A stretch of DNA of 21,314 nt from Oscillibacter ruminantium GH1 (GTDB lineage: Bacteria > Bacillota > Clostridia > Oscillospirales > Oscillospiraceae), in assembly GCF_000307265.1 (NCBI RefSeq), contig NZ_DF158896.1, positions 1 through 21,314 on the forward strand, in the 5' to 3' direction. How positions within the stretch are numbered: the first letter of the stretch is position 1; every line of letters starts with the position of its first letter. The notes under the pieces are model-generated. The model did no database searches, had not been told where the DNA came from, and worked only from the letters and a program-made list of their open reading frames with translations. The position numbers and the translations under genes were made by a program. Positions 6,401-20,394 of the stretch are shown here, one piece after another.

Positions 6401-6455
6401 CAAGCGGTTGCGTTTCTGCCATCATCGGCTTCACCCATCCAAGAGGAGGAACACT

Positions 6456-7178: not shown

Positions 7179-7248
7179 TCAAATCAATGGAGCAAAGCAT
7201 TATTGCCTATTTTACTTCATGAATATTCTGAACGAACCAAATGAGAAA

Positions 7249-7407
7249 CCCCTCTATTAGTGACTAAGTTCATCTACACAATCAAATCTGACTTGCCACG
7301 AAATTGAGCCGCTGCACCTTACTTAGATGCAACGGCTCTTGATATATCTACATGCCCAAAATCGTCCAGAGTATCCTTGCAAAAGGATGGCGAACGGACT
7401 TTTTCAT
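7249..7407 (+). repeat. Intergenic repeat copy A (long form). A 5' part carrying the 10-bp hairpin gagccgctgca/tgcaacggctc, then the core ACATGCCCAAAATCGTCCAGAGTATCCTTGCAAAAGGATGGCGAACGG.
   Basis: About 85% identical over ~160 bp to copy B (7944-8105). The core is shared with copies at 12601, 18194 and 19559. All five copies are in the same orientation. Confidence 0.85.
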
Positions 7408-7444
7408 AGTATCTGTGTCCTTTCCATTGTTCATATTTGTTTAA

Positions 7445-7473
7445 TTGAAAGTTCCGCTTTACTATGGTAAACT
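7445..7473 (+). promoter_or_regulatory. Sigma-70 promoter TTGAAA-17-TAAACT for the ABM-like gene; part of a duplicated module (see 18295-18323)
   Basis: TTGAAA at 7445-7450, a 17-nt spacer, and TAAACT at 7468-7473. The sequence ctttactatggtaaa is conserved in the second copy. Confidence 0.6.
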
Positions 7474-7486
7474 CACTTTATATATC

Positions 7487-7515
7487 TGCCGTGTAAAACT
7501 TTTGTGAAACGGTAG
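7487..7515 (+). promoter_or_regulatory. Inverted repeat CTGCCGT-N16-ACGGTAG just downstream of the -10 element; candidate operator or 5'-leader stem
   Basis: 7-bp arms separated by 16 nt, starting 14 nt after the -10. The same architecture (CTACCGT-N16-ACGGTAG) occurs at 18336-18365. Confidence 0.55.
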
Positions 7516-7582
7516 CATGGGAAATTAACGCTCGGTGAGCAAGTTTTATATAATTTATATAATGTGTGAGGTGGTGCAATAA

Positions 7583-7930
7583 ATGTTTAATGAAATTTGT
7601 ATCTATGAGGCAAAGATTGAAAAGCAAGAGGAAATTGAGCAACTTATGAAAGAGGTTGCCGCCTTTTATATGGAGCAGGATGGTGTTATTGAAGTTAGAT
7701 ATATCAAACGCACCCACCGCCAAACAGATTTTAATGCCGTTAAAGAAGGGGCATTGCCTGTTCGCCTCACACGCAATGTAGGCAAAGTCACTTATGTTTT
7801 ACATTGGACTGTTAGAGATGAAGAAACTCACGCAAGGGTGTCAAAGTTAGGGTTAGAGCATTTTTACAAGCGATGGAACAGATGCTTAACCACTATGCCA
7901 AAAATTATTTTGGGTGAAAACATTGTGTAA
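7583..7930 (+). CDS. Small ABM-like (antibiotic biosynthesis monooxygenase / Dabb-fold-like) protein, 115 aa
   Basis: RBS gaggtgg. The composition and the pattern YVLHWTVRDEETHARV...HFYKRW resemble ABM-domain proteins, but this is a weak assignment. Confidence 0.45.
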   Translation: MFNEICIYEAKIEKQEEIEQLMKEVAAFYMEQDGVIEVRYIKRTHRQTDFNAVKEGALPVRLTRNVGKVTYVLHWTVRDEETHARVSKLGLEHFYKRWNRCLTTMPKIILGENIV

Positions 7931-7943
7931 GGGTATGAGCACA

Positions 7944-8105
7944 CCCTCTGTTAGTGGTTTAACTTCACCTACACAATAAAATCTGACTTATCACGAATTT
8001 GAGCCGTTGCATCTTACTTGACGCAACGGCTCTTGCTTTGTCTACATGCCAAGAATAGTCCAGAGTATCCTTGCATTAGGTCGGTGAACGGATTTTAATT
8101 TTCAT
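7944..8105 (+). repeat. Intergenic repeat copy B (long form, with a perfect 10-bp hairpin gagccgttgc/gcaacggctc at 8001-8032)
   Basis: Aligned by eye with copy A. It begins 14 nt after the stop of the 7583-7930 gene and ends in ...ggtgaacggattttaattttcat. Confidence 0.85.
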
Positions 8106-8125
8106 AAACAGCGCTTCCTTTCATA

Positions 8126-8154
8126 TTGACATTTTTTGATGTGAAGCATATACT
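8126..8154 (+). promoter_or_regulatory. Sigma-70 promoter TTGACA-17-TATACT for the ars operon, followed by a palindrome ATCAA-N6-TTGAT (8162-8177) that is a candidate ArsR operator
   Basis: Consensus -35 and a near-consensus -10 with 17-nt spacing. The inverted repeat lies between the promoter and the arsR RBS. Confidence 0.6.
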
Positions 8155-8192
8155 ATATCATATCAAGATAATTTGATGTGAGGTGATAAACG

Positions 8193-8507
8193 TTGGAGCT
8201 TACTCCGGAGAAGAACGCTAATGTATTTAAGGCATTTTGCGATGAAAAGCGGCTTGCCATTTTGGAACTGCTGCGCAGCGGTGAAAAATGCGCCTGCGTG
8301 CTCATTGATCAAATGGAAATCGGTCAGTCCTCCTTGTCCTATCACATGAAGATTTTATGTGAATCGGGTATTGTCGAAAGCAGACAGGAAGGCAAATGGA
8401 CACATTATAAAATCAGTGAACAGGGCAGCCACGAGGCCATGCTCCTGTTAAAAGCAATTACCACCCCCAATGCAACCGCTGAAGATACTCGTTGTTGCAA
8501 TCAATAA
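8193..8507 (+). CDS. arsR: ArsR/SmtB-family metalloregulator (arsenical resistance operon repressor)
   Basis: TTG start after the RBS gaggtga. The HTH carries a CxC metalloid-binding motif (EKCACVLIDQ) similar to ArsR ELCVCDL. Confidence 0.8.
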   Translation: MELTPEKNANVFKAFCDEKRLAILELLRSGEKCACVLIDQMEIGQSSLSYHMKILCESGIVESRQEGKWTHYKISEQGSHEAMLLLKAITTPNATAEDTRCCNQ

Positions 8508-8600
8508 CGGCCATCTGATGGAAGATGGCTTTTATTCGGCACAACATATCAAGTTTTTTTGATATGACTATTGAATTTAAGAAAGAGAGGCGCTTACCCT

Positions 8601-9614
8601 ATGGAGATCCTTCAAAATACGTGGCTGTTCTTTCAAGACCAAGTGCTTGGAATGAAATGGCTCAACGCCCTAATCGGTAATCTGCTCTCGTTGTTCGGTC
8701 TTGATGTAACAGGACGAATTGGTGGCAGCGTTCAATTCTTTATCTATGATGTACTAAAAATCACCGTACTGCTCTGCGTGCTGATTTTCATCATCTCGTA
8801 CATTCAAAGCTACTTCCCGCCGGAACGAAGCAAGAAAATTATGAGCCGCTTTCACGGCGTGTGGGCAAATATCATGGCAGCACTGCTTGGCACGGTAACG
8901 CCTTTTTGCTCTTGCTCCTCCATACCTCTGTTCATTGGATTTACCAGTGCCGGACTGCCCCTTGGCGTGACTTTTTCCTTTCTGATTTCCTCACCCATGG
9001 TAGACCTCGGGTCGCTCGTTCTGCTCATGAGCATCTTTGGCACAAAGGTCGCTATCGTCTATGTCGTTGTGGGCCTGGTTATCGCGGTCGTTGGCGGTAC
9101 GCTGATTGAAAAACTTCACATGGAAAACTATGTGGAAGAATTCATTCGCTCGGCAAGCGGCGTAGATATTGAATCGCCTGACTTAACCCGCAAAGAGCGT
9201 GTCATTTACGCCAAGGATCAGGTGGTGTCAACCTTCAAAAAAGTTCTGCCGTACATTCTGGTTGGCGTGGGCATCGGAGCTATCATCCACAACTGGATTC
9301 CTGAAAGCTGGATTGAGATGGTGCTTGGCAGCAATAATCCTTTTGGGGTAGTGCTGGCAACTCTGCTTGGCGTTCCCATGTACGCTGACATTTTCGGCAC
9401 GATTCCGGTGGCCGAAGCGCTGCTCTACAAAGGCGCGCAGCTTGGTACGGTTCTCTCCTTTATGATGGCAGTCACAACGCTTTCCCTGCCCTCCATCATC
9501 ATGCTGCGCAAGGCGGTAAAGCCGAAGCTGTTGGGCACATTTATTGCCATCTGCACCATCGGCATTATCATTGTTGGCTATCTGTTTAATATTTTCCAGT
9601 ATCTACTGGTTTAA
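8601..9614 (+). CDS. arsP: ArsP-type permease (DUF318/PF03773 family; conserved TPFCSCS motif)
   Basis: Polytopic membrane protein with GTVTPFCSCSSIP. ATG 8601 is preferred over the track's TTG at 8571, which has no RBS. Confidence 0.7.
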   Translation: MEILQNTWLFFQDQVLGMKWLNALIGNLLSLFGLDVTGRIGGSVQFFIYDVLKITVLLCVLIFIISYIQSYFPPERSKKIMSRFHGVWANIMAALLGTVTPFCSCSSIPLFIGFTSAGLPLGVTFSFLISSPMVDLGSLVLLMSIFGTKVAIVYVVVGLVIAVVGGTLIEKLHMENYVEEFIRSASGVDIESPDLTRKERVIYAKDQVVSTFKKVLPYILVGVGIGAIIHNWIPESWIEMVLGSNNPFGVVLATLLGVPMYADIFGTIPVAEALLYKGAQLGTVLSFMMAVTTLSLPSIIMLRKAVKPKLLGTFIAICTIGIIIVGYLFNIFQYLLV

Positions 9615-9629
9615 TGGGAGGGAAAGAGA

Positions 9630-10403
9630 ATGGCTAAAAACTGGTATCCAGTCATCGATTATCTTGCTTGCACTGAATGCGGAACCTGCGTGGATTTTTG
9701 CTCCCACAGTGTTTATAACAAAGCAAAAGCCCCGTCCCCTGTGGTGATGCAACCCGGAAACTGCATTGACCGTTGCCACGGCTGCGGCAACAAGTGTCCG
9801 GCAGGCGCCATCTCCTATGTAGGCGACGATACTGGCTGGACACCGCCAAACGGCGAATGCAGTGCAAAAAAAAGCGTAGATTGCTGCCGCGGCGGGGCTT
9901 GTGAGGAGGATTCCTCCAAGGCTGTGCTTGTGGAATATCTCTATCTTGATCTCAATACCTGTGACCGCTGTATCGGCGCCGATGCGGTACTGGAAGAAGT
10001 TTTGGGCAGTATCGCGCCCGCTCTGGAGACTGCCGGATATACCATGCGGCTTCAAAAGGTACAGATCGCCACAAAAGAACTGGCGGAGCACTACCGATTC
10101 CTTGCGTCGCCCACCATTCGTGTAAATGGGCAGGATATCTGCGGACCTGTTGCGGAAAACACCTGCGGCTGCTGTGGTGAAATCAGCGGAACCGATGTGA
10201 CCTGTCGTACCTTTGCATACAAAGGTCAAGCCTATGAAGTACCGCCCAAAGCCATGCTGGCCGAAGGAATTCTAAGAGCTGTGCTCGGCATGGTGCAGCC
10301 CGTTTGTGACTGCGGCGAGTATTCACTTCCAGAAAATCTCAAAAACTTCTTTGAGGGAAAAGCTGTGAAGACCGGTTGCTGCCCTGAAGGTACTTGCGGA
10401 TGA
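9630..10403 (+). CDS. 4Fe-4S ferredoxin domain fused to a Cys-rich thioredoxin-like DUF2703-type domain
   Basis: N-terminal CTECGTCVDFC...CIDRCHGCGNKCP ferredoxin motifs. The C-terminal domain carries several CxxC/CC pairs (CDRC, CGCCGE, CDCGE, CCPEGTCG). The RBS is gggaggg. Confidence 0.6.
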   Translation: MAKNWYPVIDYLACTECGTCVDFCSHSVYNKAKAPSPVVMQPGNCIDRCHGCGNKCPAGAISYVGDDTGWTPPNGECSAKKSVDCCRGGACEEDSSKAVLVEYLYLDLNTCDRCIGADAVLEEVLGSIAPALETAGYTMRLQKVQIATKELAEHYRFLASPTIRVNGQDICGPVAENTCGCCGEISGTDVTCRTFAYKGQAYEVPPKAMLAEGILRAVLGMVQPVCDCGEYSLPENLKNFFEGKAVKTGCCPEGTCG

Positions 10404-10453
10404 GTAAACAAAGGATATAAAAACAGTTATTCCACTTTTGATTTTCGCCGTCA

Positions 10454-10705
10454 TTGCCGAGATTGACCTTTACGGTTTTGGGTATCCTTGCGGCCACGGC
10501 GGGCAGCCTTGTATGGAGTGTTTTGCTACTGCTGCTCTATTTCATTGGGCACGGCATTCTCGCCGTGATTGCGGAGCCTTCCATGGGCTTTGCCCAAAAG
10601 CTCTCCCAAAGCGAGAAGTATGGAAAAGCCAGCGCTATTTTGAAAATCGTCATGGGCGCGGTGATCCTGCTCATCGGTTTCTATTTGTTATATTCAGGTT
10701 TCTAA
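10454..10705 (+). pseudogene. CcdA/DsbD-family thiol-disulfide transporter fragment (two C-terminal TM helices only); likely a truncated gene
   Basis: Only 83 aa with 2 TM helices resembling the C-terminal third of CcdA. TTG start with no RBS. An in-frame TGA at 10439 excludes an upstream extension. Confidence 0.4.
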
Positions 10706-10730
10706 TCATGAATTTAAGGAGGTTTTTATT

Positions 10731-11102
10731 ATGGCATTGTTTGGTTTTGGTAAAAAGAAAAATGCAGAGGAAGAATTGGTGCAGTGTGGTTGCGGGGAAA
10801 TGTGCAAGCCCTCCGAAATTGCCGCAAAGAAAGCTGACGAAGAAGCAAAAGTGAGCGGTTCATCCGTCAAGGTGCTTGGCTCGGGCTGTGCAAAGTGCAA
10901 TCAACTGGAAGCGGCTACCTTGGAAGCGCTCAAAGAGCTTGGCATGGATGCCACCATTGACCATGTGACAGACTTTACACAGATCGCTGCTTACGGTGTG
11001 ATGACAACTCCTGCATTGGTTGTGGACGGCAAGGTCGTTTCCTTTGGAAAGGTTTTAAAAAAGGACGAGGTCGTTAAAATCCTGCAAAAAGTACGGGGGT
11101 AA
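10731..11102 (+). CDS. Thioredoxin-family small redox protein (redox-active disulfide protein 2-like, CAKC active site)
   Basis: GSGCAKCNQLEAA thioredoxin-fold CxxC motif and ~120-aa size. Strong RBS aggagg. This type of protein is typical of ars loci. Confidence 0.7.
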   Translation: MALFGFGKKKNAEEELVQCGCGEMCKPSEIAAKKADEEAKVSGSSVKVLGSGCAKCNQLEAATLEALKELGMDATIDHVTDFTQIAAYGVMTTPALVVDGKVVSFGKVLKKDEVVKILQKVRG

Positions 11103-11106
11103 ATTT

Positions 11107-12153
11107 ATGGCAAAGGAAAAATCACAAAGCATTGGCTTCTTTCAAAAATACCTGACCGTGTGGGTTGCTCTCTGTATGACGGCAGGTGTTTTAATTGGTA
11201 AACTTTTACCTGCCGTTCCTGCATTTTTAGGCCGTTTTGAGTATGCCAGAGTTTCTATTCCGGTCGCCATCCTCATTTGGGTGATGATTTATCCCATGAT
11301 GATGAAGGTGAATTTCCAGAGCGTCAAAAATGTGGGGAAAAACCCAAAGGGGTTATTCGTCACATGGGTGACAAACTGGCTCATCAAGCCGTTCACCATG
11401 TACGGTATCGCCGCGCTATTTTTCTATGTGGTTTTTAAGGGCTTGATTGCCCCTGACCTCGCCAAGGAGTATCTGGCGGGTGCAGTACTCTTGGGTGCGG
11501 CACCCTGCACAGCGATGGTGTTCGTCTGGAGCACGCTCACCAAAGGAAACCCTGCCTACACCGTAGTACAGGTAGCAACCAACGATTTGATTATTCTGGT
11601 TGCCTTTGTGCCGATTGTGAAATTCCTACTGGGCGTTTCCAACGTGTCCGTGCCATGGGACACGCTGATTTTATCGGTCATTTTATTTGTAGTCATTCCG
11701 CTTGCGGGCGGTATTCTGACCCGTGTGCTGGTGACAAATCGCAAGGGCACAGAGTATTTTGAAAACACCTTTGTCCATAAATTTGATAATGCCACCAGCA
11801 TTGGTCTGCTGCTCACTTTGGTATTGCTGTTTTCCTTCCAAGGTGATGTGATTTTGAATAATCCGCTGCACATTCTACTCATTGCTGTGCCGCTTGTTTT
11901 GCAAACTTTCCTTATTTTCTTCATCGCTTATTTTGCTTGCAAATGGCTGAAGCTGCCCCATGATATTGCCGCCCCTGCGGGGATGATTGGCGCGTCCAAC
12001 TTCTTTGAACTGTCGGTCGCTGTGGCGATTGCATTGTTTGGTACTACTTCACCGGCGGCTCTTGCCACCGTAGTTGGCGTGCTGACCGAGGTGCCGGTGA
12101 TGCTGTTGCTTGTAAAAATCGCCAACAAAACGAAAGGATGGTTTCCAGTATGA
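11107..12153 (+). CDS. acr3: ACR3-family arsenite efflux transporter
   Basis: 10-TM protein. The N-terminal part (FQKYLTVWVALCMTAGVLIGK...IPVAILIWVMIYPMM...) is characteristic of ACR3/ArsB-type arsenite efflux transporters. Confidence 0.8.
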   Translation: MAKEKSQSIGFFQKYLTVWVALCMTAGVLIGKLLPAVPAFLGRFEYARVSIPVAILIWVMIYPMMMKVNFQSVKNVGKNPKGLFVTWVTNWLIKPFTMYGIAALFFYVVFKGLIAPDLAKEYLAGAVLLGAAPCTAMVFVWSTLTKGNPAYTVVQVATNDLIILVAFVPIVKFLLGVSNVSVPWDTLILSVILFVVIPLAGGILTRVLVTNRKGTEYFENTFVHKFDNATSIGLLLTLVLLFSFQGDVILNNPLHILLIAVPLVLQTFLIFFIAYFACKWLKLPHDIAAPAGMIGASNFFELSVAVAIALFGTTSPAALATVVGVLTEVPVMLLLVKIANKTKGWFPV

Positions 12154-12557
12154 GCAAACCTAAAGTAGCATTTATCTGCGTACACAACTCCTGCCGCAGC
12201 CAAATTGCCGAAGCACTGGGCAAGTACCTTGCGTCTGATGTCTTTGAAAGCTATTCTGCCGGAACGGAAGTAAAGCCGCAAATCAATCAGGATGCTGTGC
12301 GGCTGATGAAGCAGATTTATGGCATCGACATGGAGCGAACTCAGCGCAGTAAGCTGCTGGAGGAGATTCCCCCAGTGGATATCGTGGTGACCATGGGCTG
12401 CAATGTGCAGTGTCCTTTTTTGCCCTGTATGCACAGGGAGGATTGGGGGTTAGATGACCCAACCGGCAAAAGCGATGTGGACTTTGAACGTACTATAAAA
12501 GCAATCCGCTCTAAAATTGAGAATTTGAGAGAGCGAATCGCTGACAACAAACTATAA
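12150..12557 (+). CDS. arsC: Arsenate reductase ArsC, thioredoxin-coupled LMW-PTPase type
   Basis: CVHNSCRS P-loop (CX5R) near the N-terminus with downstream Cys residues. ATG 12150 overlaps the acr3 stop (ATGA); the track's ATG 12138 is the alternative start. Confidence 0.8.
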   Translation: MSKPKVAFICVHNSCRSQIAEALGKYLASDVFESYSAGTEVKPQINQDAVRLMKQIYGIDMERTQRSKLLEEIPPVDIVVTMGCNVQCPFLPCMHREDWGLDDPTGKSDVDFERTIKAIRSKIENLRERIADNKL

Positions 12558-12559
12558 AG

Positions 12560-12592
12560 AACGAGGCTGGCGTTTGTCAGCCTCGTTTTCCT
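12560..12592 (+). terminator. Hairpin terminator after arsC (10-bp stem aacgaggctg/cagcctcgtt, then a U-rich tail)
   Basis: Seen directly in the sequence. The U-tract is interrupted (tttcctattc). Confidence 0.55.
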
Positions 12593-12600
12593 ATTCTCCG

Positions 12601-12646
12601 TTACATCCCCAGTATCGTCCAGAGTATCCTTGCATAAGGATAGTGA
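12601..12646 (+). repeat. Intergenic repeat copy 3 (short, core only: TTACATCCCCAGTATCGTCCAGAGTATCCTTGCATAAGGATAGTGA)
   Basis: Matches the core of copies A, B and 4 at most positions. It sits between the convergent arsC and nifX-like genes. Confidence 0.75.
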
Positions 12647-12659
12647 TATTTTATAATTT

Positions 12660-12695
12660 AAAAAAACAAACCCTGCTGATTTATTTTCAACAGGG
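12660..12695 (-). terminator. Putative terminator of the minus-strand nif-like operon (hairpin plus T-run on the minus strand)
   Basis: On the minus strand: accctg-N15-cagggt followed by tttgttttttt. Confidence 0.4.
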
Positions 12696-12738
12696 TAGTC
12701 TTTTTATAATGCAATTATATCCTTGTGTTCAATGTTTT

Positions 12739-13098
12739 CTATTCGCCGCATTCATCATGATGCTGATGTTCATGGCAAACGGAACCGGTTGTCTTGAGGT
12801 CGCCCTTTAGATAGTTCTCAACAGCAGTTTTGGCGTCGCCAGAAGCTCCTACTACAACTTCAACATTCCTTTCATTAAAAATCTCAACCGCACCTCCGCC
12901 CATACCACCGCTGATAATGACATTGATACCACGATCAGCAAGAAAGTTAGGCAAGAATCCGGGTTTATGCCCGGGGTTAGCAACGGTTTCGCTTTTGATG
13001 ATTTGATTATTTTCAGTATCAAAAATCATGAAACCTTCGCAATGTCCAAAGTGCTCAGTCACCATTCCATTTTCGCTTGCTACTGCAATTTTCAGCAT
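12739..13098 (-). CDS. NifB/NifX/NafY-family dinitrogenase FeMo-cofactor-binding-domain protein with a His-rich C-terminal tail (HEHQHHDECGE)
   Basis: MLKIAVASENGMVTEHFGHCEGFMIFD... pattern of the PF02579 fold. A strong RBS ggaggaaaa sits inside the upstream gene. Confidence 0.7.
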   Translation of the reverse strand: MLKIAVASENGMVTEHFGHCEGFMIFDTENNQIIKSETVANPGHKPGFLPNFLADRGINVIISGGMGGGAVEIFNERNVEVVVGASGDAKTAVENYLKGDLKTTGSVCHEHQHHDECGE

Positions 13099-13099
13099 T

Positions 13100-13939
13100 T
13101 TAGTTTTCCTCCATTTTTTCTAAGATTTTTGCAACCGGCTCAAACCAATTGCCATCGAAAAGCTCTATCATACCCTTGTCACATGCAGCCGAAATTTTTG
13201 GGTCGATAGGTAACTTAGCAAGAACCTTTAAATTATGTTTTTCGGCAATTTCTTCAATATGACTTTCGCCAAATATCTGATAGTCCTTTCCACTATCAGG
13301 GCATTTAAAGTAGGACATGTTTTCCACCAGGCCGATAATGGGAATATTCATCATCTCTGCCATCTTGACAGCCTTTGATACAATCATGGATACAAGCTCC
13401 TGTGGGGACGTCACAACGATAATTCCGTCAACAGCAATAGACTGAAATACCGTAAGAGGAACATCGCCGGTGCCCGGTGGCATATCAATGAACATAAAAT
13501 CTACATCGCTCCAAATAACATCTGTCCAAAACTGTTTTACTGTGCCGGCAATAATCGGCCCTCTCCAGACAACCGGATCAGTATCGTTTTCTAAAAGCAA
13601 ATTAACAGACATGATATCAATCCCGGTCTTCGTTTTAACAGGGAATAAGCCGAACTCACTGCCTTTAGCTTTTTCTTTGATTCCAAATGCCTTAGGAATA
13701 GAAGGTCCGGTAACATCCGCATCTAGAATAGCGGTATGATAGCCCATTCTATTCATTGTAACTGCAAGCATTGAGGTAACAAGTGATTTTCCGACACCGC
13801 CTTTGCCGCTGACAACACCAATAACCTTTTTTACACTGCTCATCTCATGCAGCTTCTCGGAGAAATCTGTTTTTTGTTCTTTTCTTTCTGCGCAGTCCTC
13901 CGAACAACTGCTACAGCTTTGATTGCAATTTTCGCTCAT
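13100..13939 (-). CDS. Mrp/NBP35 (ApbC-like) P-loop ATPase with an N-terminal Cys-rich segment (CNQSCSSCSEDC)
   Basis: Walker A GKGGVGKS, plus ...CPDSGK... and the Mrp signature. RBS aaggag. Confidence 0.8.
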   Translation of the reverse strand: MSENCNQSCSSCSEDCAERKEQKTDFSEKLHEMSSVKKVIGVVSGKGGVGKSLVTSMLAVTMNRMGYHTAILDADVTGPSIPKAFGIKEKAKGSEFGLFPVKTKTGIDIMSVNLLLENDTDPVVWRGPIIAGTVKQFWTDVIWSDVDFMFIDMPPGTGDVPLTVFQSIAVDGIIVVTSPQELVSMIVSKAVKMAEMMNIPIIGLVENMSYFKCPDSGKDYQIFGESHIEEIAEKHNLKVLAKLPIDPKISAACDKGMIELFDGNWFEPVAKILEKMEEN

Positions 13940-13956
13940 AATCTTGCTCCTTTTAT

Positions 13957-14802
13957 TTAGATTACAATTTCACTGCCTGCTGACAGATAATCGATGCTAT
14001 CACCCATAATAGCTTTAAGCCTTTTATAAGGCTCGACACCTGTACAATGGCAAGTGTAAAACTTTGCTTTTGTATCCATTAGGTATTTACCAATTCTATC
14101 TATCATTTTAGAGTCCTCGTTTCCGCCTGAGCGGCTGGAAAGATGAAATCCACCTATCACATAGCCCGGCATTCGACCTTTTAGCGTGTGAAAATGCTCA
14201 AGTATATTTATGATGCCATTATGAGCGCAGCCTGTTACTAATAGGGTTTTCCCGTCTTCCTCTACCACGAGGTTTTGTTCATGTGCAAAGATATCATCTA
14301 TCGTTTGCCCCTTATATTCCTTGAGCAAACCACTGTTTGATTTTGGGCGTGGCTCGTTTTGGACGATATTAGAGAATACTTGGATTCCACTGTTAATAAA
14401 GAAACGGTCTGACGTGAGAATAATTTGTTTGTTTTGATTCAGTTCTTCATCAAGACCGATAAATTCCAATTCATCATTTGGGCGAATAGCATAGTGCTTT
14501 TCAAAAGCGAGACGATGTAGAAATACCTCGGCTTTTGTGTTTTCTTTCAAAAAGGTTTTTAGCCCTCCGCCGTGGTCATAGTGTCCATGCGAAATCACAA
14601 GAAAGTCAACATCAGCAATATTCACATTAAGCTTTTTTGCATTTTGAAGAAACAGCTCGCTTGCGCCCACATCAAACAATATTTTATGTTTCTTTGTTTC
14701 TATATACAGGCTAAGGCCATGCTCGCTGCCAAAGTCTTTTGATATCGAGGTGTTTTCAACCAAAGTTTTAATAAGCATGACTTTAGCCACCACCTTTTTC
14801 AA
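13957..14802 (-). CDS. MBL-fold metallo-hydrolase
   Basis: HxHxDH motif (VISHGHYDHGGG) and a downstream His/Asp pattern. The start may instead be the ATG 24 nt downstream (MLIKTLV). Confidence 0.7.
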   Translation of the reverse strand: MKKVVAKVMLIKTLVENTSISKDFGSEHGLSLYIETKKHKILFDVGASELFLQNAKKLNVNIADVDFLVISHGHYDHGGGLKTFLKENTKAEVFLHRLAFEKHYAIRPNDELEFIGLDEELNQNKQIILTSDRFFINSGIQVFSNIVQNEPRPKSNSGLLKEYKGQTIDDIFAHEQNLVVEEDGKTLLVTGCAHNGIINILEHFHTLKGRMPGYVIGGFHLSSRSGGNEDSKMIDRIGKYLMDTKAKFYTCHCTGVEPYKRLKAIMGDSIDYLSAGSEIVI

Positions 14803-15658
14803 AGAGTAGATTCATTGTTTTGTGATAAACCTCTTTAACCGCCGTACCCGATATACAGTCTATATCTACAACGGTTTGACCATTATTAATCGCTTTGACC
14901 GCGTTAGAGTCAAAGGGTATCCTGCCAATAAAGGGCAGCGCTTGTTTTTTACAAAACTCTTCAATCTTCTCTGTATTCTCAATGTTAGTATCGTATTTGT
15001 TGATACATACCGCTGTCTTTGTTCCGAATTTTGCTGCCGTATTTATAATGCGCTCCATATCGCTGATACCTGATATGGAAGGTTCTGCGACTATCAAAAC
15101 CATATCCACACCACTAAGTGATGCGATGACAGGACAGCCTATTCCGGGAGATCCATCAATAATGGCAAGTTCCGCATCAGCTGCTGTCGCCTTCATTTGC
15201 TTTTTCACCTCAGTTACAAGCATTCCGGAGGTACCACTGCCCATTTTTAGTTGCGCTGTTGAAAAAACTTTTTCTCCATCAGAATACAGCATTAATTCCC
15301 CGGCCACTGCCGGTTTCATAGTTATCGCTTCCACAGGACAAACATACTCACAAACGCCGCAGCCTTCACATGCGAAAGGATCCACTTTGTATTTTTCATC
15401 TATTGAAATAGCATCAAATCGGCAGTTTTGCCTACACTGATCGCATTTAATGCAAAGTTCCGGATCTATATCTGCTTTTGGTAGCCCATAATAATCTGTT
15501 CTTGCAGGTTTAACACTCCATCCGGTAATGAGGTGCAGGTTAGGCGCATCTACATCACAATCCGCATATGCTTTGGCATCAGCAAGCTTTATAAACGCAC
15601 TTGCTATTGTCGTTTTTCCGGTTCCGCCTTTACCGCTAAGGATTAGTAGTTGTTTCAT
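14783..15658 (-). CDS. MinD/ParA-superfamily P-loop ATPase with an inserted double 4Fe-4S ferredoxin domain (COG1149-like)
   Basis: Walker A GKGGTGKTT plus CIKCDQCRQNC...CEGCGVCEYVCP. Confidence 0.8.
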   Translation of the reverse strand: MKQLLILSGKGGTGKTTIASAFIKLADAKAYADCDVDAPNLHLITGWSVKPARTDYYGLPKADIDPELCIKCDQCRQNCRFDAISIDEKYKVDPFACEGCGVCEYVCPVEAITMKPAVAGELMLYSDGEKVFSTAQLKMGSGTSGMLVTEVKKQMKATAADAELAIIDGSPGIGCPVIASLSGVDMVLIVAEPSISGISDMERIINTAAKFGTKTAVCINKYDTNIENTEKIEEFCKKQALPFIGRIPFDSNAVKAINNGQTVVDIDCISGTAVKEVYHKTMNLLFEKGGG

Positions 15659-16493
15659 GCTGCACCTCCTTTGTCACCTTGTTAAGCAGAGAAGAAAACA
15701 ATTCCCGGTATTCCTCATTTTTATTAACGGCGATTTCCGCATTTGAGTTCAAGGTTCCAAGTTCATTGTCAAATGGAATCCTGCCTAAAATCTTAATATT
15801 TTTTTCCAAACAAAACTTCTCAGCAGGATTTTCTCCTTCCAAACATTTGTTAAGAATCACCCCATATGGCCTGTTAAATAACTTGACCAGTTCGTATACC
15901 ATGTTGAGGTTATGAACACCAAACAATGTCGGCTCAGCCACCAGTATGCAATAGTCCGCATCTTTGATGCTCTCCATCACGATACAAGCACTTCCTGGTG
16001 GACAGTCGATAAATGTTTGCTTATTTACTTCCGAACTTTCCTCAAGTAGCTTTTTTATGATAGGAATACCCGTAGCTTCACCGGTGTTCAATACTCCTGT
16101 CCATACCGCCACTTCGCCAGAAACCCCTTTTTTAATTTTGCCAATAACCTTTGCTTTCTCTGTTAGTGCACTTTCAGGACAAACCAAGATACAGCCACCG
16201 CAGGAGTGGCACACATCGTCAAAGACAATCAGTTTGTTTTTAATATAGGCAAGGGCGTTAAAGTTGCAAAATTCAACGCATTTTCGACATCCATTGCATA
16301 ACTCATGATCAACTTTTGGAATCTTTACTGATATTTCTTCCACCTGAACCCCTTCAGGCTTAAAAAACAGATGTCCATTCGGCTCTTCTACATCACAGTC
16401 TATATATGTGGATGCTTTCGCTGCCGCAGCTAAATTCACCGATACCAGTGTTTTTCCTGTGCCGCCCTTGCCGCTTAGCACAGCTATTCTCAT
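15636..16493 (-). CDS. Second MinD/ParA-type ATPase with a 4Fe-4S ferredoxin insert (paralog of the previous gene)
   Basis: MRIAVLSGKGGTGKT... plus CNGCRKCVEFC...CHSCGGCILVCP. The start was moved to the internal ATG at 16493, 1 nt after the upstream stop; the track start at 16556 would overlap by 62 nt. Confidence 0.75.
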   Translation of the reverse strand: MRIAVLSGKGGTGKTLVSVNLAAAAKASTYIDCDVEEPNGHLFFKPEGVQVEEISVKIPKVDHELCNGCRKCVEFCNFNALAYIKNKLIVFDDVCHSCGGCILVCPESALTEKAKVIGKIKKGVSGEVAVWTGVLNTGEATGIPIIKKLLEESSEVNKQTFIDCPPGSACIVMESIKDADYCILVAEPTLFGVHNLNMVYELVKLFNRPYGVILNKCLEGENPAEKFCLEKNIKILGRIPFDNELGTLNSNAEIAVNKNEEYRELFSSLLNKVTKEVQHETTTNP

Positions 16494-16494
16494 A

Positions 16495-16863
16495 TTAATT
16501 GCCCCCGTGCCCGTGAAATCCGGCATGAAATTCATCCAGCAAAGGTAATTTCCCATCTATAAAAGCATCAATATTATCTTTGGCTGAACCGGTTATCGTT
16601 TTATAAATTTTGATTTCAGCGGGTTTTAGCACTTCAGCAGCATTTTCTCCTAAGCGGGGAGTGAGTAAAACATCTGCTTTGTTATCAACTATTATTTGTG
16701 CAGCTTTAATCCCTGCACCTCCTGTGCTTGCCGCTGCACTGTTGTCAATAAATATACTTTCCTTAGTTTCTACATCGTAAATAAGAAAATAGGGAGTACG
16801 TCCAAATGACACACATACATTCGACTCCAAGGTTTTCTCATCTACTGGAATTGCTATTTTCAT
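16495..16863 (-). CDS. NifX/NifB-like FeMo-cofactor-binding-domain protein
   Basis: [30 protein letters not shown]... of the PF02579 family. Confidence 0.7.
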   Translation of the reverse strand: MKIAIPVDEKTLESNVCVSFGRTPYFLIYDVETKESIFIDNSAAASTGGAGIKAAQIIVDNKADVLLTPRLGENAAEVLKPAEIKIYKTITGSAKDNIDAFIDGKLPLLDEFHAGFHGHGGN

Positions 16864-17248
16864 AAGAATCCTCCGTTCTATTTTTGTTTAAATAATTCTC
16901 AATTGCGTTGCGTAGCGCACTCACACCTAAATTTGAGCAATGAACCTTATTTTCAGGAAGTCCATCTAAAGCCTGGATAATGTCTTCTTCCGTAATATTC
17001 AATGCTTCCTCTAAGGTTTTACCCTTTGCTAATACCGATGTCATACTGGATGTTGCAATTGAAGCACAACAGCCAAACACAAGATAGCTGATTTCATCTA
17101 CACGATTATCTTTTACCTTTAAATAAACGGTCAAATAATCTCCGCAGGAAGGATCCCCGTAGTCTCCCTCGGCATCTGCATCGGGCATACTATGAGTATT
17201 TTGCGGACACATAAAATGCTCAATTACTTTTTCTGAATATATAATCAA
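16838..17248 (-). CDS. NifU/IscU-like Fe-S cluster assembly scaffold (N-terminal domain type)
   Basis: Conserved Cys triad context (PSCGDY...VFGCCAS...HCS). Confidence 0.65.
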
Positions 17249-17622
17249 CCACCTCGATCCGTGTCATCTGTAAAGCATCGACCACGCCTATGCCTATGAC
17301 AGCCGCGACCACAACCATTCCCCAACCCTTCACAAAGCCGATATTCGCCACCCTCAATCAGTAACACCTTTCCATTTACTAAAGATTCAGCCAGCTTTTT
17401 TCTGGCTTCAATGTAAATGCCTTGAACAGTGCTACGAGCAATATTCATTTGCTTGGCACACTCTTCTTGAGTAAAGCCTTCCAAATCGATAAGTCTTATG
17501 GTCTCATACTCGTCTACAGTCATGTTTACATGGTTTTCTGTGTCGGCAGGTGAATCAAGAGGCCCAAATCTATTGCTTTCAGGCAAACAGCAAACTTTTC
17601 TCCACTTCATCGGTCTCGCCAT
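17245..17622 (-). CDS. DUF134 (UPF0251) predicted DNA-binding protein with a C-terminal Cys/His-rich tail
   Basis: [56 protein letters not shown] matches DUF134. RBS ggaggtga. Confidence 0.7.
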
Positions 17623-17685
17623 AATTCATCACCTCCATCCTAATCAGAAATAACCAGAGCGTCCTCCGGTTATCCCTGATGCCCG

Positions 17686-17964
17686 TTATAGGTTCTCCAT
17701 TTGCTTTTCAATAACTTCAAGTCGATCTTGCAACATGGCTTTCTGTTCATTCAGCAGCTCTTTTTGTGTTTTTGAGGAGGTCTGATTAATCGCAGAACCC
17801 CTACCAAAACCGCGACCGAAACCGCGTCTGCAAGCAAGTCCAAGGCCTAATCCCATTCCGAGACCAGCTCCGTACTTTACTACATTAGCACCTGTGCAAA
17901 GCCCTAATCCTCTTCCAGTCATTGATCCCGCACCCATTGGGCCGGTTCCATCCCTTCTTGGCAT
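17686..17964 (-). CDS. DUF5320-type small protein (Gly-rich N-terminal part plus a C-terminal coiled coil)
   Basis: MPRRDGTGPMGAGSMTGRGLG... Start moved to the internal ATG at 17964, which follows the RBS aaggaggtg by 7 nt. Confidence 0.65.
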   Translation of the reverse strand: MPRRDGTGPMGAGSMTGRGLGLCTGANVVKYGAGLGMGLGLGLACRRGFGRGFGRGSAINQTSSKTQKELLNEQKAMLQDRLEVIEKQMENL

Positions 17965-18008
17965 AATATTCACCTCCTTATGGTTTGTGGCATATGCCAT
18001 CTATTCTT

Positions 18009-18036
18009 ATTATACCCCGTTTATGTCATATGTCAA
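18009..18036 (-). promoter_or_regulatory. Near-consensus sigma-70 promoter (TTGACA-16-TATAAT) driving the minus-strand nif-like operon
   Basis: On the minus strand: TTGACA (18036-18031), a 16-nt spacer, and TATAAT (18014-18009). It is followed by a strong RBS before the DUF5320 gene. Confidence 0.7.
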
Positions 18037-18193
18037 TAACTTTTTGAAATAATTAAAAAAGCTGCCAATCTATAGTTTTGATTAATAATTTTGTGAACTG
18101 GAGGCAAAAATACAAACTATATACTTAAATATTTTGATGGGTTATAATAATAAAGATTAGCAGGCCGGTCCCACAAGATAAGGAGCCAGCTTG

Positions 18194-18266
18194 CTCTTTT
18201 CATCACATCCCCAAAATCGTCCAGGGTATCCTTGCAAAAAGATGGTGAGCGAATTTTAATTTTCAT
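18194..18266 (+). repeat. Intergenic repeat copy 4 (core plus the 3' tail ...ggtgagcgaattttaattttcat), fused to the promoter/IR module
   Basis: ctcttttcatcacatccccaaaatcgtccagggtatccttgcaaaaagatggtgagcgaattttaattttcat. Its first 31 nt match copy 5 at 30 of 31 positions. Confidence 0.85.
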
Positions 18267-18294
18267 CTTGCTCTTCTCCTTTCTGTTTAGTCAA

Positions 18295-18323
18295 TTGAAA
18301 CAAGCTCTTTACTATGGTAAAAT
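18295..18323 (+). promoter_or_regulatory. Sigma-70 promoter TTGAAA-17-TAAAAT for the GGDEF gene (duplicate of the 7445-7473 module)
   Basis: TTGAAA-caagctctttactatgg-TAAAAT. ctttactatggtaaa is shared with copy A's promoter. Confidence 0.6.
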
Positions 18324-18335
18324 TAGAAAAAAGTA

Positions 18336-18365
18336 CTACCGTGCAAAATCTTTGCAAAACGGTAG
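18336..18365 (+). promoter_or_regulatory. Inverted repeat CTACCGT-N16-ACGGTAG (perfect 7-bp arms) 13 nt downstream of the -10; candidate operator or leader stem
   Basis: Same geometry as 7487-7515. The spacer is itself palindromic (gcaaaatctttgcaaaa). Confidence 0.55.
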
Positions 18366-18436
18366 CTAAGACACATTGTACATATAAGGTGGATTTTCGA
18401 GTAAAATATTTAATTTAAAATAAGGAAGGGTTTATT

Positions 18437-19510
18437 GTGATAAAAGACCTATTTATAAATATGACCATTCTCATAAGTTTCATAAGTTTAGGAGGCCAAG
18501 TCGCAAAAAAGCATAATTATGAAGAAAATAATAGTCTAAGGACAAAAATCATTATTGGAACGATATTAGGTACTTTGGGCTGCTTTCTCATGCTGTTTAG
18601 CGTCAAAGTCAATGACAATACAATTATTGATTTTAGAAATATAGCCATAGTTATATCAGCACTTTTCGGGGGGCCTATACCTATTTTTATTACCACTGCA
18701 CTAATCGCTGTTTTTAGAGTAGCATACTTTGGGGTTAACATCGCTTCCCTTATAGGAGTTGTTGCAGCAGTCTTAAATTCTTTTGGCTGTTGGTACATAG
18801 CGAGGCGTAATATTAAAACATGGAGAAAGTGGGTTTACTCAATAATTTATGTTTTAGTTGTTGCAACCATAGCACTTTTTCTAATACTGGGAAACAGAAG
18901 TGACTTTCTTATAATAATATCTATATATTGGATTTCGTTCTGCTTAGTTTCAGCAATAATATATTGGTACATTAAATACAGCCTTGCCGCAAACAGATTA
19001 TTTAATAGACTACAGAAGGAATCTACCAAGGATTTTCTTACAGGTCTAAATAATGTTAGACAATTTGACTTTGTTTTTAACAGCACCATGAAAAATGCTC
19101 TTAATAAGGAAGAAAGCCTTTCTTTGTTAATGGTGGATATTGATTTTTTTAAAAAAGTTAATGACACCTACGGACACATGGAGGGGGATATTGTATTGAA
19201 AGAGTTGGGGAAAATATTATCTGAAAACTGCAGGCATTTTGATGAAGTTTCCAGAAATGGCGGTGAAGAATTTTCAGTGCTACTTCCCGATTGCGCCTAC
19301 CCGCGGGCAATGCAAATAGCGGAACGAATAAAAGATGCTGTTAAAAATCATTCTTTCACATTATCTACAGGTGTGCAAATTCAAATTACTATTTCAATAG
19401 GAGTTGCGTCATACCCTGAAACCATACAGGATATTGAAAAACTTATGGAGAAGGCAGACACGGCACTGTATGCTGCGAAGCGATCGGGGAGAAATAGGGT
19501 TTGTTCATAA
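18437..19510 (+). CDS. Membrane sensor diguanylate cyclase. The N-terminal ~190 aa form a 5-6 TM sensor (5TMR-LYT-like); the C-terminal part is a GGDEF domain with an intact GGEEF active site and an RxxD I-site.
   Basis: GTG start after aaggaaggg. LSLLMVDIDFFKKVNDTYGH...RHFDEVSRNGGEEF... Confidence 0.8.
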   Translation: MIKDLFINMTILISFISLGGQVAKKHNYEENNSLRTKIIIGTILGTLGCFLMLFSVKVNDNTIIDFRNIAIVISALFGGPIPIFITTALIAVFRVAYFGVNIASLIGVVAAVLNSFGCWYIARRNIKTWRKWVYSIIYVLVVATIALFLILGNRSDFLIIISIYWISFCLVSAIIYWYIKYSLAANRLFNRLQKESTKDFLTGLNNVRQFDFVFNSTMKNALNKEESLSLLMVDIDFFKKVNDTYGHMEGDIVLKELGKILSENCRHFDEVSRNGGEEFSVLLPDCAYPRAMQIAERIKDAVKNHSFTLSTGVQIQITISIGVASYPETIQDIEKLMEKADTALYAAKRSGRNRVCS

Positions 19511-19525
19511 GTTCCCATTTGTAGA

Positions 19526-19565
19526 GCAAGGCGAACCCGGCTTCAAGGGTTCGCCTTGCTCTTTG
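19526..19565 (+). terminator. Strong hairpin (14-bp perfect stem agcaaggcgaaccc/gggttcgccttgct) after the GGDEF gene
   Basis: Seen in the sequence. The 3' tail ctttgcatc overlaps the start of repeat copy 5. Confidence 0.6.
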
Positions 19566-19589
19566 CATCACATCCCCAAAATCGTCCAG
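19559..19589 (+). repeat. Intergenic repeat copy 5, truncated after CGTCCAG at 19589 (only the first 31 nt of the core)
   Basis: ctctttgcatcacatccccaaaatcgtccag matches copy 4. The sequence diverges completely from 19590 onward, which coincides with the GC shift. Confidence 0.8.
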
Positions 19590-19604
19590 ATACGGCTCTA
19601 TACA

Positions 19605-20285
19605 ATGTCGGCAGAACAGGACAATGACTTTGCTGCATACCGGCTCGGCAAGCTGTATCTTGGCGGTGAGGGCGTGCTGAAGGATGTGGAGTCCGCCATT
19701 CTCTGGCTGACCTTTGCCGCCGACAGAAAGAACCAATTTGCTGAATATGCCCTCGGCGTCCTCTACTTCAAGGGGGAGGATGTTCCGAAGGATGTCCCCA
19801 AAGCTCTGGAATACCTGAAACGGTCTGCCGGTCAGGGTAATCAGTTTGCACAGTACCGGCTGGGCAAGATTTATCTTATGGGCGAGGATATGCCAAAGGA
19901 TATTCAGACTGCCCTGCAATTTCTGACGGCTGCCGCTGAACAGGGAAATCAGTATGCGCAATACACCCTCGGCAAGCTGTATCTGATGGGAAAGGATGTT
20001 CCGAAGGACAAGGAAACTGCTGTCCGCTGGTTTACCTTATCGGCAGAGCAGGGCAACATTTACGCTCAGTTTTTCCTCGACCATATGGACGATTTCAAAG
20101 ACCCCTCTGTCCTGCTGGCGGGAACACGGCTCCTGCATCACATGAGCCGTGTTTTTGCGGACAACGCTCCGCCGCTGAAACCGCCCGGTCAGCGAACCGA
20201 CCGCAAGCTCCTCCGCAAGCTTCGTGAGAAAAAGCAGGCGCAGGGCCATGCGAGGGATGACCATGAGCAAACCATGTCATTATAA
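19605..20285 (+). CDS. Sel1-repeat (TPR-like) protein with a basic C-terminal tail
   Basis: At least 5 Sel1 units (AxYxLGxxYxxGxGVxKDxxxAxxWxxxAAxQGN). ATG 19605 has a weak RBS, so the start is uncertain. The upstream extension in the track overlaps the GGDEF gene and was rejected. Confidence 0.6.
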   Translation: MSAEQDNDFAAYRLGKLYLGGEGVLKDVESAILWLTFAADRKNQFAEYALGVLYFKGEDVPKDVPKALEYLKRSAGQGNQFAQYRLGKIYLMGEDMPKDIQTALQFLTAAAEQGNQYAQYTLGKLYLMGKDVPKDKETAVRWFTLSAEQGNIYAQFFLDHMDDFKDPSVLLAGTRLLHHMSRVFADNAPPLKPPGQRTDRKLLRKLREKKQAQGHARDDHEQTMSL

Positions 20286-20365
20286 CGATTGGAGGATAAC
20301 CGTGAAGAAACAGAAAAAGAAAATCAAACAGCCACCCATCAAGGGAAAATTGCTCCAAAGCCAAT

Positions 20366-20394
20366 GCCGTCCTGTAAAAAGGGCGGCTTTTTTT
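20366..20394 (+). terminator. Rho-independent terminator (gccgtcc-N8-gggcggc, then 7 T)
   Basis: Seen in the sequence, between the Sel1 gene and the primase gene. Confidence 0.6.

Follow-up and report, generated by a model that had tools for sequence, protein, structure and literature searches.

A repeated, partly coding site that probably bounds exchangeable gene cassettes in conjugative elements of Clostridia

The DNA analyzed here, called the window below, is a stretch of 21,314 nucleotides of Oscillibacter ruminantium GH1 (contig NZ_DF158896.1, positions 1 to 21,314). Its GC profile shows a block of 32-53% GC within a backbone of 55-60% GC that runs to about position 4500 and resumes from about 19600. 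A repeat search of the window found five copies of a short repeat, all on the plus strand, which partition positions 4701-19589 into five blocks that include an arsenic resistance operon, an Fe-S/nif-like operon and a diguanylate cyclase gene. The explanation we favor, with a probability that we put at about two in three, is that the repeat is a site-specific recombination (attachment, att) site of about 46 bp bounding independently exchangeable gene cassettes of Clostridial integrative and conjugative elements (ICEs). The copies and their parts are as follows, DUF3852 being the family of a conjugation gene described below.

7349-7393, plus strand: copy A of the repeat (repeat family D1)
7349-7369, minus strand: left half of core A, a spare 3' end of DUF3852, whose reverse complement TGG ACG ATT TTG GGC ATG TAG reads WTILGM-stop
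7364-7368: region of core A that contains the crossover, GTCCA
7370-7393, plus strand: right half of core A, AGTATCCTTGCAAAAGGATGGCGA, forming the left end of cassette c2
8043-8087, plus strand: core B (left half 8043-8063, right half 8064-8087)
12602-12646, plus strand: core C (left half 12602-12622, right half 12623-12646)
18204-18248, plus strand: core D (left half 18204-18224, right half 18225-18248), preceded by an imperfect hairpin at 18160-18194
19569-19589, minus strand: terminal half-site E, a left half only, CACATCCCCAAAATCGTCCAG, giving WTILGM-stop plus TGA on the minus strand

Copies A to D show 82-89% identity to copy A over 45 nt, and the match of the fifth copy (aligned at 19569-19613) is confined to its first 21 nt. 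Successive copies lie 694, 4559, 5602 and 1365 nt apart. An earlier note on this DNA, made from the sequence alone, had described five same-orientation copies, and its coordinates proved right within 1-10 nt. The consensus written there was slightly mis-transcribed (0 matches at ≤3 mismatches), and a shorter degenerate core was used instead. The 21-nt pattern ATMGTCCAGRGTATCCTTGCA gave 4 matches on the plus strand of the window versus 0 in 100 shuffles of it.

The two halves of the site differ in nature. The left half, YACATNCCNARNATMGTCCAG (21 nt), is the reverse complement of the end of a DUF3852 gene, comprising its last seven codons plus stop (WTILGM-stop), and left halves in general are the reverse complement of TGG ACN ATH YTN GGN ATG TAR. 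The terminal copy of many arrays has no right half and passes directly into a minus-strand gene ending in ...APTYIWTILGM-stop. The product of this array-terminal gene matches DUF3852 (PF12963, E 1e-48) and, weakly, the TrbC/VirB2 pilins. Eighty of 106 unique internal left halves still encode WTILG followed by M, L or I and a stop, and their variation is overwhelmingly synonymous (Thr as ACG or ACT, Ile as ATT or ATA, together with five Leu, four Gly and three stop codons). The left half is thus the coding 3' terminus of a DUF3852 gene on the minus strand, and protein-coding selection on the att site is visible. The right half is a non-coding conserved arm of about 25 nt, NNNATNCTTGCA..GGTGA, in which conservation extends to about position 47 (AT.CTTGCA.A..G..GGTG), with the variant classes AGTATCCTTGCA, TCAATRCTTGCA and ACAATCCTTGCA. 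The earlier note had tested other frames and taken the whole repeat to be non-coding, which holds for the right half but not for the left 21 nt. It had also listed the fifth copy as truncated; the half copy is real, but it is the terminus of the array, where the body of DUF3852 should follow.

Two other coding readings of the site were considered. A forward frame through the core (YIPKIVQSILAKGW-stop) was tempting owing to its CCN/ATH variation, and it was dropped because the terminal copies show the minus-strand DUF3852 frame. Short minus-strand open reading frames (ORFs) that start after the right half (MKIKIRSP...) were rejected, as neither frame nor length is conserved. A ribosome binding site and ATG on the minus strand adjoin the right half and could be the relic of a gene; they too are not conserved as an ORF.

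The 21-nt core occurred in 87 stretches (98 matches) of a collection holding one genome per species, in which we estimate that about one match would be expected by chance. The matches fall in Oscillospiraceae, Lachnospiraceae, Anaerotignum, Anaerovorax, Sedimentibacter, Eubacterium, Desulfitobacterium and others, often with several on one contig and often at contig ends. In all, 111 related loci of 8-20 kb were fetched (designated L with a number). With a 54-nt profile of the site, 162 copies were found in the window and the first 87 loci together, in a single orientation within each locus. The arrays lie between the 3' end of DUF3852 (VirB2-like) and a TrbL_5 gene (VirB6-like). Their neighbors encode a DNA methylase, DUF7768, a VirB4-like DUF87 ATPase, DUF8193-5, DUF6550 and DUF4320, with genes of a Tad-type pilus (T2SSE, RcpC, Peptidase_A24) around them. 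From this gene content the surroundings are the conjugation module, a type IV secretion operon, of a widespread Clostridial ICE family. At least 7994 DUF3852 homologues were found at E ≤ 1e-5 among 8000 scored, with 120 listed at 83-91% identity to the query, and ICEs bearing DUF3852 are very common in Clostridia. The 282-nt long form of the repeat had no blastn match among PLSDB plasmids and INPHARED phages, tblastn of DUF3852 against plasmids found none, and the core was absent from IMG/VR contigs, indicating that the system is ICE-borne. NCBIfam gave no name for any ICE protein tested.

Both empty and occupied sites were found. In Tissierella pigra (L098) the site is empty, with 71 nt separating the DUF3852 stop from the TrbL start codon. 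In three loci (L100-L102) one cassette lies between duplicated 21-nt DUF3852 ends. The order there is X...TATATT joined to TGGACAATACTCGGCTTATAG, a hairpin and the cassette, CGTCTTTATGCAAGTATTGAC joined to TGGACGATACTTGGGATGTAA, the original intergenic region and then TrbL. This layout is the classical signature of site-specific insertion with gene-end duplication, in which the cassette would supply the new DUF3852 end and the old end would turn internal.

Two observations concern DUF3852 itself. In two unrelated loci, L075 (oriented ~4997-7012) and L109 (815-3455), a group II intron splits the gene at the same codon (after ...GQFEW). The 5' end of the intron is GTGCG, and its ORF has 605 residues in L075, where by eye it resembles a reverse transcriptase/maturase, or 474 residues in L109. 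DUF3852 is thus a target of a second kind of mobile element. At a contig start (L111, 300-360) a DUF3852 body (..APLYI TGGAC) is joined to AATCCTCGCATAAAGACGGTGAA, a right half in reversed orientation, and this looks like a junction of the inversion type.

In the first 87 loci plus the window, the sites bound 88 complete cassettes (188-5602 bp) that fall into 47 types at 80% identity. A cassette consists of a right-half arm, usually its own promoter, one or more cargo genes, usually a hairpin, and a left-half arm. Up to seven cassettes are packed into 8 kb (L050), and the cargoes include arsenic resistance, P-type ATPases, ABC exporters, acetyltransferases and c-di-GMP enzymes. The window holds five cassettes:

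4701-7369, plus strand: cassette c1, 5'-truncated, without its first 97 nt including the right-half arm
7370-8063, plus strand: cassette c2 (694 bp), with 100% identical copies in many genomes beside different neighbors
8064-12622, plus strand: cassette c3 (4559 bp), an arsenic resistance operon (Pfam) with its own promoter at 8126-8154
12623-18224, minus strand: cassette c4 (5602 bp), an Fe-S/nif-like operon (Pfam) with a promoter at 18036-18009 that matches 12/12
18225-19589, plus strand: cassette c5 (1365 bp), a 5TMR-LYT/GGDEF diguanylate cyclase gene at 18437-19510 and a hairpin at 19524-19561

Cassette c1 encodes an AraC-type regulator (4778-5677), a glyoxalase (5681-6400) and a DUF5131 protein (6408-7178; all Pfam). 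Its homology to a complete type-3 cassette starts at cassette position 98, which is window position 4701, with 99% identity to L092. Cassette c2, the commonest in the arrays, has a promoter (TTGAAA-17-TAAACT with TG, 7445-7473), a leader hairpin (7488-7515) and a gene at 7583-7930. The 115-residue product of the latter, called 'ABM' in the earlier note, has no Pfam match, although 2808 indexed blocks of the assembly collection contain precisely this sequence. The genes of c3 encode ArsR, an ArsP permease, Fer4/DUF2703, a thioredoxin, an Acr3-type SBF protein and the LMWP ArsC. Three copies of a 24-nt palindromic motif, TCATATCAAGATAATTTGATGTGA, flank arsR (8121-8144, 8158-8181 and 8544-8567) and are probably the ArsR operators of this cassette. 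The c4 genes encode DUF5320, DUF134, NifU_N, two Nitro_FeMo-Co, two CbiA/ParA-Fer4, MBL and NUBPL-type ParA proteins, and the cassette has 84-90% identity to cassettes in L066 and L065. The promoter module of c5 lies at 18286-18366 (TTGAAA-17-TAAAAT at 18295-18323), and none of the other loci contains a homologous cassette.

The order of the cassettes is shuffled among genomes. Cassette c2 (type 0) has types 1 and 5 as left neighbors and, on its right, type 8, type 2 (ars), type 3 (AraC-glyoxalase) or DUF3852 itself. Next to the ars cassette, on its right, the window has type 11 and other loci have type 1. The ars cassette itself is 99.9% identical in L031, L074, L085, L086, L091 and L094, where a different cassette comes after it; these near-identical copies, like the 100% identical copies of c2, reside in different genera. 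The variation of flanking genes that the earlier note had proposed to look for is thus present, as polymorphism in both presence and order of the blocks. Of its candidate identities, the site of a cassette recombination system is the one supported, with modules in varied order and combination in many genomes and a sharp exchange point.

The other identities proposed in the earlier note were a MITE/PATE-like element or a REP/BOX repeat, to which a small structured RNA, regulatory or selfish, may be added. The repeat is indeed short, repeated and intergenic, and copies A and C of the window contain the small hairpin ATCCTT-GCAA-AAGGAT. However, its stem is intact in only 53 of 104 unique copies, the changes fall on the 3' arm only and none is compensated. 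With no covariation, the small palindrome does not appear to be a conserved structure. Moreover, the copies occur only in cassette arrays, in a single genomic context and orientation, and are never dispersed. They lack terminal inverted repeats, there is no target duplication besides the DUF3852 end, and the left half is coding. Rfam, which the earlier note had suggested consulting, returned only tRNAs at the gathering score and nothing credible at E ≤ 1 in 7200-8250. This group of explanations is already largely refuted and is the least probable of those weighed here.

Larger hairpins precede most copies, and three of these lie at the right ends of cassettes c1 to c3:

7306-7338, plus strand: hairpin at the right end of c1, GAGCCGCTGCACC..AGATGCAACGGCTC (from sequence and DNA fold), within an end module of about 110 nt shared with c2
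8001-8032, plus strand: hairpin at the right end of c2 (from sequence and DNA fold)
12560-12587, plus strand: hairpin at the right end of c3

The extra 5' sequence that the earlier note had seen to be common to copies A and B is real (~85-120 nt, against ~120 nt claimed; families D6, 7265-7324 and 7960-8019, at 87%, and D3 at 83%), although the hairpin within it has 13 bp rather than 10 bp. This right-end module is optional, being found at 13 of 94 unique cassette ends. A second module (D5/D11, ~90 nt) at 4701-4747, 7436-7516 and 18286-18366, 3' of some copies, consists of a promoter (TTGAAA-17-TAAACT/TAAAAT with an upstream TG) followed by a leader hairpin. No larger hairpin precedes copies that have ICE backbone, or the beginning of a gene on the minus strand, as their left flank. 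These hairpins look like cassette terminators rather than parts of the site; a simple terminator scan of the plus strand did not call them.

The position of the exchange was mapped by comparing 101 distinct combinations of left and right flanks. Sites with the same left but different right cassettes agree at every core position up to 23, and at 24 their identity is already down to background. Sites with different left cassettes and the same right cassette are at background at the variable positions 8, 11, 13, 14 and 17 and alike from 24 on. Position 23 (G/A) tracks the DUF3852 allele. For example, the 694-bp cassette ends in CCAG within arrays and in CCAA beside DUF3852 genes having ATT for Ile (L033, L092). 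By this comparison exchange is confined to GTCCA (TGGAC on the gene strand), 5 nt that never vary, within the 46-nt conserved site. A second conserved block (positions 27-35) only 4 nt away is never used for exchange. The left half ends at the same boundary whichever of four unrelated sequences adjoins it, namely the right half, the body of DUF3852, the flank of the three serine recombinase genes in L089/L097 (where the junction reads GTCCA followed by AGCGTTCC) or the Sel1 gene of the window. Such a sharp exchange, with an unused block 4 nt away, argues against homologous recombination and for a site-specific enzyme. A core of the Tn554 type, GATGTA, was rejected, as GATGTA lies in the left half and exchange does not occur there.

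These data bear directly on an explanation that needs no dedicated enzyme, in which a conserved intergenic sequence (gene end, terminator and promoter) undergoes RecA-dependent shuffling between co-resident ICEs. Many cassettes do share longer homology, in the form of the right-end module of ~110 nt (13/94 unique ends) and the promoter module of ~90 nt. One breakpoint (L095) lies within a cassette, where the same 115-residue protein is followed by a different downstream end, and most arrays have no recombinase. However, RecA requires far more identity than the tracts of just 6-9 nt that are found here. Homologous exchange should also not fall within 5 nt when an equally conserved block (27-35) sits 4 nt off, nor should positions 24-26 and 29 track the right rather than the left cassette. 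In addition, it accounts neither for a sharp boundary that is alike against four unrelated right-hand partners nor for a recombinase gene that abuts the site. We consider this explanation unlikely.

The recombinase gene in question encodes a large serine recombinase of 534 residues with Resolvase, Recombinase, DUF4368 and Zn_ribbon_recom domains. It lies directly to the right of a canonical core in three loci (L069, L025, L081), with a stop codon that falls within the right half, some 21 nt away from the crossover. In a fourth locus (L109) a canonical core overlaps the stop codon of a homologue with 99% identity. There the recombinase is the last gene of a mobilizable unit inside a DUF3852-to-TrbL array, preceded by DUF6809, AAA_25, a NikA-like protein, a PF03432 relaxase and a small ORF. 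A 70% identical homologue in a complete genome (L110) belongs to a unit of the same type downstream of DUF3852 and one cassette, with a diverged core after its stop codon. A recognizable diverged core, with the left half WSVVGM-stop, also follows the stop codon of a 56% identical homologue (L111). Integrase genes usually adjoin their own att sites. Recombinases with DUF4368 domains belong to the TndX-like clade (PMC10083194), the best-studied member of which, TnpX, integrates and excises without a directionality factor and has a 2-bp crossover (PMC5704250). The adjacency of gene and core, together with these properties, leads us to propose that the recombinase is the enzyme. We take the TnpX crossover to be a GA dinucleotide, and GA occurs in TGGAC. 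A DUF4368 large serine recombinase of the TndX/TnpX type is thus the best candidate enzyme, and it would act in trans.

Trans action is assumed since neither the window nor the array of CP035281.1 encodes a recombinase. Pfam and a recombinase HMM screen found no recombinase or transposase in the window, as the earlier note had said, and the HMM screen found no serine or tyrosine recombinase in the 88 bounded cassettes. Neither were integrase or relaxase relics seen in the cassettes, and those of the window contain nothing but cargo genes. These absences were judged within the 8-20 kb loci, not whole genomes.

Just 5' of the serine recombinase start, three loci contain TGTCAGGGTTATCCTTGAC (L069, oriented 5240-5262; L025, 2322-2344; L081, 7612-7634), which resembles the core around the crossover, GTCCAGGGTATCCTTGCA, and may represent either a second site or a binding site for autoregulation. 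In L089 (9800-15466) and L097 (9800-18257) a different element terminates in one or two cassettes. On one side of these is a disrupted gene of the collagen-like type (BclA_C), and on the other is a tandem set of three large serine recombinase genes, whose products are 33-36% identical to the array-associated recombinase. The last left half is joined there at GTCCA to AGCGTTCCTCGGAAC, and the first cassette is without a canonical right half.

A tyrosine recombinase, either an ICE-borne XerC-like protein or the host Xer, might use the site instead, as in the pdif modules of Acinetobacter plasmids or in integrons. A gene for a XerC-like protein of 312 residues lies in the DUF3852-to-TrbL region of two loci, on the TrbL side of one cassette (L095, 8816-9754; L106, 10001-10939; the proteins are 88% identical), and by inspection the sequence 5' of its start resembles that following the right half in standard cassettes. 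However, the protein is 64-66% identical to the chromosomal XerC of Clostridium and is absent from nearly all arrays. No canonical core adjoins the gene, and the DUF3852 ends of these two loci are divergent (WQILGV-stop and WKILGM-stop). By inspection the core has no inverted arms around a spacer of 6-8 bp and no likeness to dif at the crossover, and it shows no fold of the attC type. The XerC-like gene is therefore the weaker candidate, and the tyrosine recombinase explanation seems to us about as improbable as that invoking RecA.

Less probable still is a nick site resembling oriT, at one copy of which an HUH relaxase would start and at the next end, thereby freeing single-stranded cassette circles. 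In its favor, a hairpin precedes most copies by 8-14 nt, a spacing that nick sites also show; the copies are direct repeats throughout, and the recombinase is accompanied by a PF03432 relaxase. The sequence of the right half, TATCCTTG/CA, is also similar to the nick motif of MOBP relaxases, YATCCTG/Y. The segregation of positions 24-33 with the right cassette nevertheless excludes a nick at CTTG/CA. Moreover, copies whose left flank is ICE backbone all lack the hairpin, and HUH sites need little 3' conservation, yet about 24 nt 3' of the nick are conserved.

In the site-specific recombination explanation, a presumably circular cassette would recombine with the last codons of DUF3852 by crossover within GTCCA, at the DUF3852-proximal end of an array. 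The incoming left half would replace the last seven codons plus stop of DUF3852, and the displaced end would become an internal repeat. Repeated insertion would produce a head-to-tail array, from which recombination between repeats could delete, excise or reshuffle cassettes. A cassette without a recombinase would depend, provided that both of its arms are retained, on the recombinase of the mobilizable element acting in trans.

Several observations weigh against this explanation. As the 87 loci were fetched by a pattern spanning core positions 15-35, the conservation of those columns is partly imposed, although 25 secondarily found copies of the TCAAT type and the loci reached through proteins are free of this bias. 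Inspection shows no dyad symmetry in the core around the crossover. In JGI metagenome contigs no junction was found that would reveal the 694-bp cassette as a circle or in tandem, which is a weak negative. A recombinase homologue in L040 does not adjoin a core, and no recombinase is present in the array of CP035281.1 (L090/L091, ~18 kb), which was read from TrbL to DUF3852. ICEs of the family carry differing integrases, either tyrosine recombinases (L098, L104) or three serine recombinases (L089, L097). Finally, the explanation does not account for how recombinase-less cassettes first gained both arms.

Much of this logic is familiar. SCCmec elements enter the 3' end of orfX (rlmH) via large serine recombinases, leaving direct repeats that carry the gene end, and among the units of tandem SCC arrays are pseudo-SCC modules, which lack a recombinase and whose movement is attributed to enzymes acting in trans. 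The likeness (insertion at a gene 3' end, boundary repeats with the gene end, recombinase-less modules) is one of mechanism only. The target here is a conjugation gene of an ICE, DUF3852, not a chromosomal housekeeping gene. The candidate enzyme is of the DUF4368/TndX-like clade rather than CcrAB/CcrC, and the modules are much smaller (0.2-5.6 kb), more numerous and heavily permuted.

There is also a likeness to integrative and mobilizable elements (IMEs) and cis-mobilizable elements (CIMEs). Decayed elements that retain att sites accrete in tandem (PMC5704250), and IMEs with serine recombinases integrate in a Maff2-related gene of Tn5252-type ICEs, beside the VirB6 gene (PMC5704250, PMC12084326). 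The present arrays likewise have an IME within an ICE conjugation module beside the VirB6 gene, and integrase-less units between att sites. As in CIMEs, the att sites are direct repeats that include the 3' end of the target gene, and the units have no recombination or transfer genes of their own. In contrast to the Maff2 elements, the ICE family (DUF3852/TrbL_5, with Tad-like pilus genes) and the target gene are different, and the target gene is restored rather than disrupted. As the cassettes show no integrase or mobilization relics, simple decay of 47 separate IMEs is unlikely; unlike in CIMEs, scale and permutation are integron-like.

Integrons share with these arrays their single direction, small and mostly single-function cassettes with one site each, a sharp crossover, a fixed platform end and shuffled order. 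In contrast to integrons, there is no IntI, as no ORF of the window has a Phage_integrase domain and the tyrosine recombinase HMM matches nothing in the window or the 88 cassettes. There is also no attC: when 60 unique sites were folded as DNA, the crossover was never enclosed by base pairing, and the core is GTCCAG, not GTTRRRY. Most cassettes here have their own promoter, the cargo can have either orientation and the platform is a coding gene end. With Tn4451/Tn4453 (TnpX) and Tn5397 (TndX) the candidate recombinase shares its domain set, including DUF4368, its travel with a relaxase and the location of its gene at the very end of the element. However, TnpX and TndX have low target specificity, whereas the candidate appears tied to one site of about 46 bp. 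The relaxase is PF03432 with a NikA-like partner instead of the MobV-type TnpZ of Tn4451, and cassette arrays have not been reported for Tn4451.

Insertion at a gene 3' end with restoration, tandem accretion and integrase-less units flanked by att sites are therefore already known. New here are the ICE family and its target gene, the many small clean cassettes, permutation without IntI or attC, and coding selection on the att site. Our literature search, the coverage of which was incomplete, found no prior description of DUF3852, of the core sequence or of integron-like cassettes in Clostridial ICEs. A broader proposal, for which we would stop short of an even bet, is that the arrays are an undescribed 'serine-recombinase integron' of Gram-positive conjugative elements. 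Cassettes with promoters of their own would leave the array one by one as circles and be inserted at the DUF3852 end by a TndX-like enzyme acting in trans, each bringing a spare gene end, and this would be a major route of gene trading in Clostridia.

A self-expressed cargo slot bounded by 46-bp sites offers a simple rule for delimiting cargo in metagenomes, where repeats break assemblies, and the arrays are a candidate integron-like platform outside Gram-negatives and without IntI. They also provide a lead to a site-specific DUF4368 serine recombinase with a defined site of about 46 bp that could serve genome engineering. If the proposal is true, gut and environmental Clostridia would have a major route to trade metal-resistance, regulatory and metabolic genes, and the spare gene end in every cassette would let the conjugation gene survive each insertion.

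The array of the window is a stranded remnant from which DUF3852, TrbL and the conjugation genes have been deleted, and the low-GC 'island' of 15 kb is a stranded cassette array, not a self-mobile element. Its two flanks are:

4381-4700, plus strand: left flank, outside the array; truncated DUF3841 gene (profile positions 1-98 of 178), marking the left deletion junction
19590-20285, plus strand: right flank, outside the array; 3' part (Sel1 repeats; Pfam Sel1) of a MobL-Sel1 relaxase-associated gene

On the right, half-site E should be followed by the body of DUF3852 as in intact ICEs; the window instead has the 5'-truncated MobL-Sel1 gene, joined to the array exactly at the crossover. Its Sel1 part (~160 last codons) is 62% identical to residues 416-577 of a MobL/Sel1 protein of 579 residues in L111. 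A junction exactly at the crossover suggests a recombinase-mediated deletion to a pseudo-site. Four Sel1 repeats of 108 nt (family D2, 19623-20008) belong to the truncated gene. They are followed by an ORF (20282-21314) that runs off the window and by eye is like the primase/Toprim-type proteins that follow MobL in ICEs. The remains of an ICE or IME thus seem to flank the array on the right.

On the left, where c1 is fused to the truncated DUF3841 gene, the junction has the look of an ordinary deletion. GC falls there from 55-60% to ~40% over 4381-4700, and downstream of an intact RtcB gene a truncated RlaP gene (71/249 profile positions) is adjacent to the truncated DUF3841 gene (98/178) within 4103-4734; the two truncated genes indicate gene decay at this edge of the island. 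Farther left are genes for a WCX-domain protein and an SPFH protein and, some 4 kb away from the island at 33-572, a cluster of five tRNA genes (Asn, Met, Trp, Asp and Thr).

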